Program-made: the position numbers and the translations under genes
Notes under the pieces: model-generated
What the model saw: only the letters and a program-made list of their open reading frames with translations
The model's database searches: none
What the model was told of the DNA's origin: nothing
Shown: one piece after another, positions 51,977 to 54,294 of the stretch
Layout: each line of letters begins with the position of its first letter
How positions within the stretch are numbered: position 1 is the first letter of the stretch
Assembly: GCF_003334815.1 (NCBI RefSeq)
Contig: NZ_QOWO01000001.1
Source: Escherichia coli
Lineage (GTDB): Bacteria; Pseudomonadota; Gammaproteobacteria; Enterobacterales; Enterobacteriaceae
Length of the DNA stretch: 64,000 bases
Direction: 5' to 3' (one strand)

Positions 51977-52606
51977 ATGATTTTATTCGCCGACTATAAC
52001 ACCCCTTATCTTTTCGCTATTTCCTTTGTACTGTTGATCGGCCTGTTAGAAATTTTTGCGCTTATCTGCGGTCACATGCTCTCCGGTGCTCTTGATGCAC
52101 ATCTTGACCATTATGATTCTATAACCACAGGTCATATTAGCCAGGCACTTCATTATCTCAATATTGGAAGATTGCCAGCTCTCGTCGTTCTCTGCTTACT
52201 GGCTGGTTTTTTTGGTCTTATTGGCATCCTGTTGCAGCATGCCTGCATCATGGTCTGGCAATCACCACTGTCGAACCTGTTCGTGGTTCCTGTCAGTTTA
52301 CTGTTTACGATTATTGCGGTGCATTATACCGGTAAAATAGTTGCGCCCTGGATTCCACGCGACCATAGTTCAGCTATTACAGAAGAAGAATATATTGGTA
52401 GCATGGCGTTAATTACCGGTCATCAAGCCACTTCAGGTAATCCCTGCGAAGGAAAACTCACCGATCAATTTGGCCAAATACATTATTTACTACTGGAGCC
52501 TGAAGAAGGAAAAATTTTCACTAAAGGAGACAAAGTGTTAATTATTTGCCGACTTTCTGCAACGCGATATTTGGCGGAAAATAATCCCTGGCCCCAAATA
52601 TTGTAA
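51977..52606 (+). CDS. yqiJ: NfeD-like inner membrane protein YqiJ
   Basis: 209 aa; N-terminal TM helices and a C-terminal soluble domain; immediately upstream of the flotillin-like yqiK. Confidence 0.85.
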
Positions 52607-52632
52607 TTTATTAATCAAAAGGAAATTTAATA

Positions 52633-54294
52633 ATGGATGATATTGTTAATTCTGTGCCCTCCTGGATGTTTACCGCAATTATTGCCGTATGCATTCTGTT
52701 TATTATTGGAATTATTTTCGCCAGGCTCTATCGTCGCGCTTCGGCAGAGCAAGCTTTTGTTCGTACTGGTTTAGGTGGGCAAAAAGTGGTAATGAGCGGT
52801 GGCGCAATCGTGATGCCGATCTTTCATGAAATAATCCCCATCAATATGAATACTCTGAAGCTGGAAGTCAGCCGCTCAACCATTGATAGCCTGATTACGA
52901 AAGATCGTATGCGCGTCGATGTAGTAGTCGCTTTCTTTGTGCGGGTAAAACCTTCAGTAGAAGGGATTGCCACCGCTGCCCAGACGCTGGGGCAACGCAC
53001 CCTGTCGCCTGAAGACTTACGTATGTTGGTTGAAGATAAATTTGTCGATGCCCTCCGTGCAACAGCTGCGCAAATGACCATGCATGAGTTACAGGATACC
53101 CGCGAGAACTTTGTGCAGGGGGTGCAAAATACAGTGGCAGAAGACCTGTCGAAAAACGGTCTGGAACTGGAGAGCGTTTCACTTACCAACTTTAACCAGA
53201 CCTCGAAAGAACATTTCAATCCGAACAATGCCTTTGACGCCGAAGGTTTAACCAAACTGACTCAGGAAACAGAGCGCCGTCGCCGCGAACGTAACGAAGT
53301 TGAACAGGATGTAGAAGTTGCGGTGCGTGAAAAAAATCGCGATGCGCTATCGCGCAAGCTGGAGATTGAACAGCAAGAAGCGTTTATGACGCTTGAGCAG
53401 GAGCAGCAGGTTAAAACCCGTACTGCCGAACAGAATGCACGTATTGCGGCTTTTGAAGCTGAACGTCGTCGTGAAGCAGAGCAGACACGAATTCTGGCTG
53501 AACGACAGATTCAGGAAACAGAAATCGACCGCGAACAGGCCGTCCGCTCAAGAAAGGTTGAAGCTGAACGTGAAGTTCGCATTAAAGAGATCGAACAGCA
53601 GCAGGTCACCGAAATCGCTAACCAGACGAAATCGATCGCTATTGCCGCCAAATCGGAACAACAGTCCCAGGCAGAAGCGCGTGCTAATCTCGCACTTGCA
53701 GAAGCGGTAAGCGCCCAACAAAACGTAGAAACCACTCGCCAGACTGCCGAAGCCGATCGTGCTAAACAAGTTGCCCTAATCGCTGCCGCGCAGGATGCAG
53801 AAACCAAAGCGGTTGAACTGACCGTGCGGGCGAAAGCAGAAAAAGAAGCCGCAGAGATGCAGGCGGCGGCTATCGTTGAGTTAGCCGAAGCTACACGTAA
53901 AAAGGGTCTGGCGGAAGCAGAAGCACAACGTGCGCTGAACGATGCTATCAACGTACTTTCTGATGAACAAACCAGCCTTAAATTCAAACTGGCCTTGTTG
54001 CAGGCGCTGCCTGCGGTAATAGAGAAATCCGTTGAGCCGATGAAGTCAATCGACGGTATCAAGATTATTCAGGTCGATGGTCTGAATCGTGGCGGCGCTG
54101 CGGGTGATGCAAACACGGGTAATGTGGGGGGCGGAAACCTGGCGGAACAAGCATTATCAGCCGCTCTCTCTTACCGCACACAGGCACCGCTGATTGACTC
54201 CTTGCTCAATGAAATTGGCGTTTCAGGCGGCTCACTGGCGGCATTGACTTCACCCTTAACCTCAACAACTCCCGTCGAAGAAAAAGCAGAGTAA
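52633..54294 (+). CDS. yqiK: Flotillin-like SPFH/band-7 protein YqiK
   Basis: 553 aa; N-terminal TM, SPFH domain, then a long Glu/Ala/Arg/Gln-rich coiled-coil region. Confidence 0.9.
   Translation: MDDIVNSVPSWMFTAIIAVCILFIIGIIFARLYRRASAEQAFVRTGLGGQKVVMSGGAIVMPIFHEIIPINMNTLKLEVSRSTIDSLITKDRMRVDVVVAFFVRVKPSVEGIATAAQTLGQRTLSPEDLRMLVEDKFVDALRATAAQMTMHELQDTRENFVQGVQNTVAEDLSKNGLELESVSLTNFNQTSKEHFNPNNAFDAEGLTKLTQETERRRRERNEVEQDVEVAVREKNRDALSRKLEIEQQEAFMTLEQEQQVKTRTAEQNARIAAFEAERRREAEQTRILAERQIQETEIDREQAVRSRKVEAEREVRIKEIEQQQVTEIANQTKSIAIAAKSEQQSQAEARANLALAEAVSAQQNVETTRQTAEADRAKQVALIAAAQDAETKAVELTVRAKAEKEAAEMQAAAIVELAEATRKKGLAEAEAQRALNDAINVLSDEQTSLKFKLALLQALPAVIEKSVEPMKSIDGIKIIQVDGLNRGGAAGDANTGNVGGGNLAEQALSAALSYRTQAPLIDSLLNEIGVSGGSLAALTSPLTSTTPVEEKAE

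Follow-up and report, generated by a model that had tools for sequence, protein, structure and literature searches.

What do yqiJ and yqiK, two adjacent genes of Escherichia coli, encode, and do their products form one system? Bacterial flotillins, together with the NfeD proteins that partner them, are conserved throughout the prokaryotes, and related cages have by now been solved structurally. The pair was analysed in a 64,000-nucleotide (nt) stretch of E. coli contig NZ_QOWO01000001.1, below called the window, for which a preliminary description had proposed an NfeD-like membrane protein paired with a flotillin-like SPFH protein. Our answer, which we hold to be likely, is that the two genes form one operon and that it encodes a membrane scaffold of the SPFH/NfeD type which faces the cytoplasm. 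The locus is the E. coli yqiJ-yqiK pair described before, and the pairing is already known, having been in print since 2009. Hinderhofer et al. 2009 placed YqiK in SPFH2 and YqiJ in NfeD2, in a shared operon, and reported nuclear magnetic resonance chemical shifts for the YqiJ C-terminus and a deletion without a stress phenotype (PMC2636767), while Wessel et al. 2023 restate that an NfeD-like yqiJ lies upstream of yqiK. The structural test given here is an independent confirmation only, restating conclusions published from 2009 onward. The physiological role of such operons in E. coli had been called poorly defined, in agreement with the literature (PMC10434171, PMC6788730, PMC2636767), in which no role is assigned to the E. 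coli flotillin YqiK.

Predicted fold of YqiJ and domains of YqiK

Pfam divides YqiJ into YqiJ_N (residues 8-115) and YqiJ_OB (139-198), and so places it under PF21001 and PF07290, not NfeD. An exhaustive search of 1.84 billion representatives returned 1013 relatives at E ≤ 0.001. The AlphaFold model, made from an alignment of 88 sequences with 26-90% identity to the E. coli protein, was confident, with a mean predicted local distance difference test score (pLDDT) of 92.5. It predicts three hydrophobic helices (6-30, 68-94 and 100-125), with an amphipathic helix in the first loop, followed by an all-beta C-terminal region (143-202). The predicted NfeD-type OB-fold domain spans about 139-202 and is a five-stranded beta-barrel as in 2exd, 2k14 and 3cp0, so that the check proposed earlier, structure prediction of the YqiJ C-terminus, gave the NfeD OB-fold. 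The domain is preceded by a multi-pass N-terminal membrane anchor, and the topology is probably N-out, C-in. In the alignment, Glu25 of the first membrane helix is near-invariant, as are Pro67, Gly83, Pro127 and Gly141, and the barrel carries a conserved cluster of Asp163/His169/Tyr170/Pro175; these are candidate interaction residues. Fold comparison was the sole successful link between YqiJ and NfeD, all direct sequence comparisons having failed; against the PDB, neither phmmer with YqiJ nor the YqiJ family profile gave a match.

YqiK is, by its sequence, a flotillin-like SPFH protein. It has the profile-detectable domain of the SPFH superfamily (Band_7/SPFH PF01145, residues 39-192, E 2.1e-18), as the preliminary description had stated, and, after long Glu/Ala-rich helices, the Flot domain of the flotillin family (PF15975, residues 406-530, E 6.4e-41). 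The YqiK AlphaFold model came from an 11-sequence alignment and was of low confidence (mean pLDDT 60.7, SPFH domain 40-57); it was used for secondary structure and the ranking of relatives only, not for geometry. Composition and model agree on a single hydrophobic N-terminal helix at residues 10-38, which in the model is a membrane helix. It is followed by a predicted alpha/beta domain (42-189), helices at 203-341 and 360-471, a Gly-rich disordered stretch, a helix at 503-527 and a disordered tail. The location of the soluble part in the cytoplasm is a published prediction, and plasmid-expressed YqiK forms punctate foci (PMC10434171).

The stretch rich in Glu, Ala, Arg and Gln that had been reported at about residues 230-470 is there (56% of these four residues, 40% in the protein overall), and Pro and Gly are absent from residues 251-400. 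Its description as a coiled coil held in part. The predicted helices are indeed long, beginning about 25 residues before the start given earlier, whereas heptad periodicity was not significant in a spectral test (z ≤ 1.5 at periods of 3.5, 3.6 and 3.67), a crude, home-made test that is neither COILS nor MARCOIL. Residues 176-325 had a hydrophobic occupancy of the a/d positions of 0.42-0.57, against 0.66-0.76 for residues 326-450; the stretch 200-330 carries so much charge that only 42-57% of its a/d positions are hydrophobic. Because there was no heptad signal, residues 203-471 are better described as a predicted long helical region than as a demonstrated classical coiled coil.

A phmmer search of the PDB with YqiK alone gave nothing below E 0.4, while the YqiK family profile matched the SPFH region of human flotillin-1 (9bq2_B, E 1.4e-6). 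Foldseek with the YqiK model ranked four flotillin-1/2 chains first (9l3g and 9bq2, E 9e-9 to 8e-8, 453-496 columns at 18-20% identity), followed at lower ranks by prohibitin, HflK/C, stomatin, major vault protein and QmcA. The NCBIfam equivalog for FloT, NF058507, aligned over residues 15-490 with 86.3 bits against a curated cutoff of 700. YqiK therefore appears from sequence as a relative, and not an equivalog, of Bacillus subtilis FloT.

Linkage and transcription of the pair

Gene linkage was examined for ten YqiJ homologues of 28-42% identity. A YqiK homologue, 45-81% identical, adjoined the YqiJ homologue in all ten. In nine it was the next gene downstream, on the same strand, after gaps of 89, 38, 36, 10, 31, 24, 44 and 36 nt and, once, with an overlap of 11 nt; in the tenth it lay upstream, with a 73-residue open reading frame (ORF) between the two. 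The Salmonella order is glgS / yqiJ-yqiK (18-nt gap) / one ibs / hldE. In the window, in the ten distant homologues, in Salmonella and in the phage Phosso described below, yqiJ thus has an SPFH gene as its same-strand neighbour. The NfeD-type OB domain of YqiJ, together with pairing that persists at 28-42% YqiJ identity, gives a firm structural basis for a second E. coli SPFH/NfeD complex beside QmcA-YbbJ.

Co-transcription of yqiJ and yqiK is probable and has good indirect support, because there is no intergenic terminator, a single conserved terminator lies downstream, adjacency is conserved and the name yqiJK is in published use. Neither finding named beforehand as refuting the preliminary description, a YqiJ lacking an NfeD fold or separate transcription of the two genes, emerged from the analysis. 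The terminator scan found no terminator-like site on the plus strand between the genes, and the RNA of the junction folds no better than shuffled sequences (z -0.07). The hairpin and T-run of the terminator after yqiK (54311-54337) start 16 nt past the stop codon, and in Salmonella an equivalent hairpin, TCCCTGGCC-ATAA-GGCCGGGGA with seven T, lies directly 3' of yqiK. The pair is handled as operon yqiJK in PMC3946193, PMC13124679 and PMC2636767, and a 2026 study lists yqiJK among membrane-associated genes or operons upregulated by NarQ. Shimada et al. 2014 reported a constitutive RpoD promoter, TTTAAA-15-TATATT, in the glgS-yqiJ spacer, which they also flagged as H-NS bound (PMC3946193); the window letters at 51790-51816 agree with it. 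Our consensus sigma-70 scan of the plus strand from 51400 to 55100 gave no site, and missed the published promoter because it demands a spacer of 16-18 nt and the promoter has one of 15 nt.

The ORF list reproduces exactly the two-gene unit, its coordinates and the 26-nt gap reported earlier (Table 1). The ribosome-binding site AGGA of yqiK is at 52620-52623, 9 nt 5' of the ATG, and that of yqiJ, GGAG, is at 51967-51970 in the glgS-yqiJ spacer, where Rfam at its gathering threshold gave no family.

Table 1. Positions, in the window, of the features of the yqiJ-yqiK locus
Feature	Position	Strand	Description
yqiJ	51977-52606	+	ATG start, 209 residues; ORF list
yqiK	52633-54294	+	ATG start, 553 residues; ORF list
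Intercistronic spacer	52607-52632	+	26 nt, 11.5% guanine plus cytosine (GC); yqiK ribosome-binding site AGGA
glgS-yqiJ divergent intergenic region	51715-51976	unstranded	33.6% GC; glgS on minus strand
Putative sigma-70 promoter of yqiJK	51790-51816	+	TTTAAA 51790-51795, 15-nt spacer, TATATT 51811-51816
Intrinsic terminator after yqiK	54311-54345	+	Hairpin with 10-bp stem, AATCCCTGGCC-CAAAAAG-CCGGGGATT, then T-run; terminator scan
Sib RNA, first copy	54520-54669	minus	Rfam
Sib RNA, second copy	54895-55044	minus	Rfam

A possible scaffold and the alternatives to it

Several known systems resemble the pair. The yuaF-floT (yuaG) operon of B. subtilis, of the NfeD2/SPFH2 class (Hinderhofer et al. 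2009), is a close one. It differs in the FloT equivalog score (86 bits for YqiK, cutoff 700), in the 9% identity of YqiJ and YuaF in a structural alignment, and in that FloT has sporulation, biofilm and fluidity phenotypes whereas E. coli YqiK, barely expressed, lacks a clear one. In the same genome as YqiJK, the SPFH1/NfeD1 pair qmcA-ybbJ likewise sets an SPFH gene beside a gene for a membrane protein with a C-terminal OB domain; like QmcA-YbbJ, YqiJK probably faces the cytoplasm. However, QmcA is a 305-residue stomatin-type protein that lacks the long helical region and the Flot domain of YqiK, and YbbJ matches Pfam NfeD whereas YqiJ does not and has no detectable sequence similarity to YbbJ. 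The cryo-electron microscopy cage of QmcA-YbbJ with 26 heterodimers (8z5g; Tan et al. 2024, as cited in PMC13086221 and PMC12478178) is the best template for a possible YqiJ-YqiK assembly. The closest solved relatives of YqiK, by profile and by Foldseek, are the eukaryotic flotillin-1 and flotillin-2 (9bq2, 9l3g), with which it shares the SPFH domain, long Glu/Ala-rich helices and the Pfam Flot domain; those proteins form hetero-oligomers, are anchored by a hairpin and acylation and have no NfeD partner, whereas YqiK has a predicted transmembrane helix. The floA-nfeD operon of Staphylococcus aureus also joins a flotillin-type scaffold to an NfeD partner and is the only such pair whose mechanism has been put to the test: its NfeD binds to the flotillin and makes the oligomer more stable, and unfolded proteins are held by the complex with no need of ATP (PMC11222466). 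Unlike YqiJK, it consists of a short, stomatin-like (QmcA-like) SPFH protein and an NfeD of canonical type. Its mechanism may, by analogy, carry over to YqiJK.

Based on these systems, YqiK would be anchored in the inner membrane through its one N-terminal helix and would form a homo-oligomer, a large ring or cage, by analogy with the flotillin 44-mer, the HflK/C 24-mer and the QmcA-YbbJ 26+26-mer. The SPFH domains would sit on the membrane, with the long, charged, Ala-rich helices packed laterally as the wall. YqiJ would lie in the membrane beside or under the cage through its three transmembrane helices, and its cytoplasmic OB domain presumably binds YqiK and in this way nucleates the oligomer or makes it more stable, as S. 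aureus NfeD does with FloA and E. coli YbbJ with QmcA. The enclosed patch of membrane could then act as a membrane-stress compartment that holds damaged or unfolded membrane proteins or organises lipids locally. In E. coli the operon appears to be driven by a weak, H-NS-flagged promoter and is barely expressed in laboratory conditions, which we propose as the reason why deletion gives no phenotype. The YqiJ-YqiK interaction, the cage and the physiological role are proposals by analogy.

A number of observations weigh against such a scaffold. BLASTP of YqiJ against E. coli YbbJ found nothing. Pfam NfeD (PF01957) was matched by none of the 88 YqiJ-family sequences at E ≤ 0.001 and by one at E 0.05, and hhalign of YqiJ against a YbbJ profile, itself shallow (≥ 73% identity) and so limiting, gave a collinear alignment that was not significant (probability 12.6%). 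The membrane domain YqiJ_N is a separate family of its own, and the gene order, with the OB protein first, is opposite to that of qmcA-ybbJ, where qmcA comes first with a 4-nt overlap. Given this separate domain, the reversed order and the missing sequence similarity to NfeD, the binding mode could differ from those of YbbJ and S. aureus NfeD. Moreover, the 'clamp' of S. aureus is an architecture unlike the closed cages known for other SPFH complexes, and either could apply to YqiK. The TM-scores of the Foldseek matches of YqiK were low (0.18-0.25), the ranking resting on a weak model. In published deletions, a quadruple SPFH mutant among them, no change in growth, biofilm or stress behaviour could be put down to yqiK (PMC10434171, PMC2636767), the exception being one report, as cited in PMC10434171, of yqiK effects on motility and ampicillin. 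Finally, the insertion sequence (IS) IS1, a frameshift or a deletion disrupts yqiK in a few percent of sampled genomes, so that the gene is dispensable. One alternative is that YqiJ did not diverge from NfeD: it would be a separate OB-fold membrane protein whose link to flotillin genes arose by convergence, and its function could not be read from studies of NfeD. We regard this as unlikely. 'NfeD-like' is correct for YqiJ as a matter of fold and context, that is, of the predicted OB-fold and of adjacency to an SPFH gene; it is not correct as sequence-family membership.

Two further explanations concern the pair as a unit. The genes might be expressed independently, with a yqiK promoter inside yqiJ and a conserved neighbourhood that is not an operon. 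Their different compositions (42.5% GC in yqiJ, 50.4% in yqiK), the lineages in which yqiJ is frameshifted at a T7 run while yqiK is still annotated as intact, and the one sampled relative with reversed order and a small ORF between would all be expected from this. It is nevertheless very unlikely, since the scans gave neither a sigma-70-like site on the plus strand of 51400-55100 nor, between the two genes, anything resembling a terminator, in relatives the genes lie 10-89 nt apart or overlap by 11 nt, one conserved terminator follows yqiK, and the literature treats yqiJK as an operon and as one NarQ-upregulated operon. The E. coli pair might also be a decaying, H-NS-silenced remnant that has no current function and is kept by drift alone. 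The protein is barely detectable (PMC10434171, PMC6788730) and its deletion has no phenotype (PMC10434171, PMC2636767); both genes suffer IS1 insertions, frameshifts and deletions, and yqiK carries many rare in-frame indel alleles in its helical region. However, each gene was intact in about 95% of an even sample of 60 complete genomes. YqiK is 97-100% identical across aligned E. coli variants even where the DNA diverges to 93%, the changes being mostly synonymous, and selection looks purifying from these alignments; identity is 92% in Salmonella and 45-81% in distant taxa. The indels are in frame and spare the SPFH and Flot C-terminal regions. Decay to a remnant is thus quite improbable, and the two-gene scaffold operon is the reading that we prefer.

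Variation, neighbourhood and mobile copies

The pair belongs to the E. coli core, yqiJ matching in 5421 and yqiK in 5425 of 5426 complete genomes. The standard yqiK of 1662 nt is present in 55 of the 60 evenly sampled genomes. Across the complete genomes, divergence at the DNA level is greater in yqiK than in yqiJ, with 719 genomes at 90-95% identity compared with 17, a contrast for which recombination at the locus, or an allelic split of long standing, may be responsible. In-frame indel alleles of YqiK in E. coli and Salmonella range from 1 to 35 residues and include expansions of EQ and AEKEA units as well as duplications or deletions of 9, 13 and 16 residues. Over 120 database clusters, 54 of 61 distinct events lie in residues 245-437 (35% of the protein; window 53390-53950), with none in residues 1-163, the SPFH core, and none in 438-541. 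A deletion of 35 residues (275-309, 105 nt) fits the spacing of a perfect 14-nt direct repeat at 53453/53558, which suggests slippage. Tandem Repeats Finder found nothing in yqiK. The 120 listed clusters have 36 different protein lengths, and a region of population-wide hypervariable length was considered and rejected: the even sample is mostly standard, the alleles are rare, and clustering makes them conspicuous. Antisense ORFs within yqiK (for example 53511-54062, minus strand, 183 residues) were dismissed, on composition as the sole basis, as by-products of a GAA/GCA-rich coding strand.

In yqiJ, the T7 homopolymer at 52207-52213 is the site of frameshift alleles with truncated products of 120 residues (clusters P0119 and P0120); P0120 occurs on 573 contigs, including O145:H28, and one O145 genome of the even sample has a yqiJ of 629 nt. 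IS1 insertions were seen in yqiJ and in yqiK. A chromosomal fragment of 758 bp (51791-52548) is flanked by IS5 and IS1 on about 40 resistance plasmids of E. coli, Shigella and Klebsiella at 99.5-100% identity, among them an mcr-3 plasmid. It begins in the -35 region of the promoter and breaks off 58 nt short of the yqiJ stop (positions 6001-6758 of the locus taken from plasmid NZ_CP154598.1, L002) and yields a C-terminally altered 'OB-fold-containing protein' of 197 residues. This fragment is probably an IS-captured passenger.

Over 3.3 kb around the pair, the window shows 100% identity with the E. coli 7/2 chromosome (NZ_CP023820.1), where yqiJ is labelled 'OB-fold-containig protein' and yqiK 'flotillin family protein'. 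The gene order there is ygiL-usher-yqiH-yqiI / glgS (opposite strand) / yqiJ-yqiK / ibs-ibsE / hldE, and this annotation and Rfam confirm the glgS and ibs/sib neighbours named earlier. The AT-richer setting also ascribed to the pair is seen in the glgS-yqiJ spacer, in yqiJ (10th percentile of the window for GC) and in the upstream fimbrial operon (40.9% GC), but not in yqiK, which at the 34th percentile is close to the 50.8% of the window. The fimbrial operon, ygiL-yqiGHI (window 47000-51465, ubiK to glgS), is missing at the Salmonella locus (ribB-ubiK-glgS-yqiJ-yqiK, L015). It is also missing or different in some E. coli genomes, in which matches begin only at query position 78-80. The fimbrial operon thus differs between the two genera.

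Downstream, the terminator is the first element of a unit of about 377 nt, made up of terminator, ibs toxin gene and antisense Sib RNA, of which two copies stand in tandem (window 54300-55044); Salmonella has a single ibs copy at the locus. The 101 nt 3' of yqiK have a median of 2 matching places in an E. coli genome, which makes them specific to this locus and not common to all sib loci. A 19-nt direct repeat, AATAATCCCTGGCCC(C/A)AAA, with 18 of 19 positions identical, flanks yqiK at 52580-52598, in the last codons of yqiJ, and at 54308-54326, in the left arm of the terminator hairpin. It was seen in none of 300 shuffles and has no evident function. Its yqiJ copy encodes a conserved NPWP motif, and Salmonella yqiJ ends differently, without the repeat.

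The pair also occurs in phage. Sinorhizobium phage Phosso, a cultured jumbo phage of 469 kb, carries it as gp491-gp492 (PV764938.1 355001-357334; L016 2293-4626). The YqiJ homologue is full-length and annotated as hypothetical (E 8e-47 to the family profile); a flotillin-like protein of 566 residues (E 2e-173) is encoded 12 nt downstream, and a TelA-like 'toxic anion resistance protein' two genes downstream of the pair. Neither E. coli YqiJ nor YqiK matched PADLOC or any family of PHROGs v4. A YqiJ-flotillin pair with a 10-nt gap is also found on a 145-kb contig (JGI Ga0613822_000028; L007 5001-7461, also L008), among an HNH gene and many small ORFs that have no Pfam or PHROGs match; ten ORFs of this region gave no match to PHROGs. 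By its appearance, this region may be part of a large phage or mobile element.

The yqiJ homologue is directly preceded, on its own strand, by a PspA/IM30 gene at two loci and by a TelA gene at one (L004 799-4064, L011 3331-6424 and L013 1028-2818). These neighbours fit the membrane-stress context proposed in a comparative-genomics study of Psp, and suggest a larger membrane-stress operon elsewhere, of which E. coli has kept the two-gene core. A tentative, and to us rather doubtful, extension is that the YqiJ-flotillin pair is a portable, self-contained module for membrane stress or remodelling and not a housekeeping 'raft' scaffold. It would travel with PspA and TelA, and also in Phosso, with its TelA-like gene, and on the 145-kb metagenomic contig. 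The E. coli copy would perhaps be induced only when the envelope suffers a particular injury, for instance from phage infection or from agents that damage membranes, and since the wall helix of YqiK tolerates in-frame changes of length, the height of the cage might evolve freely. On a metagenomic, enterobacterial-like contig (L005 2259-9927), a yqiJ-flotillin pair lies between copA-like ATPase and cueR-like MerR genes and directly adjoins an NfeD and Band_7 pair resembling ybbJ-qmcA, which brings both SPFH/NfeD modules within 4 kb.

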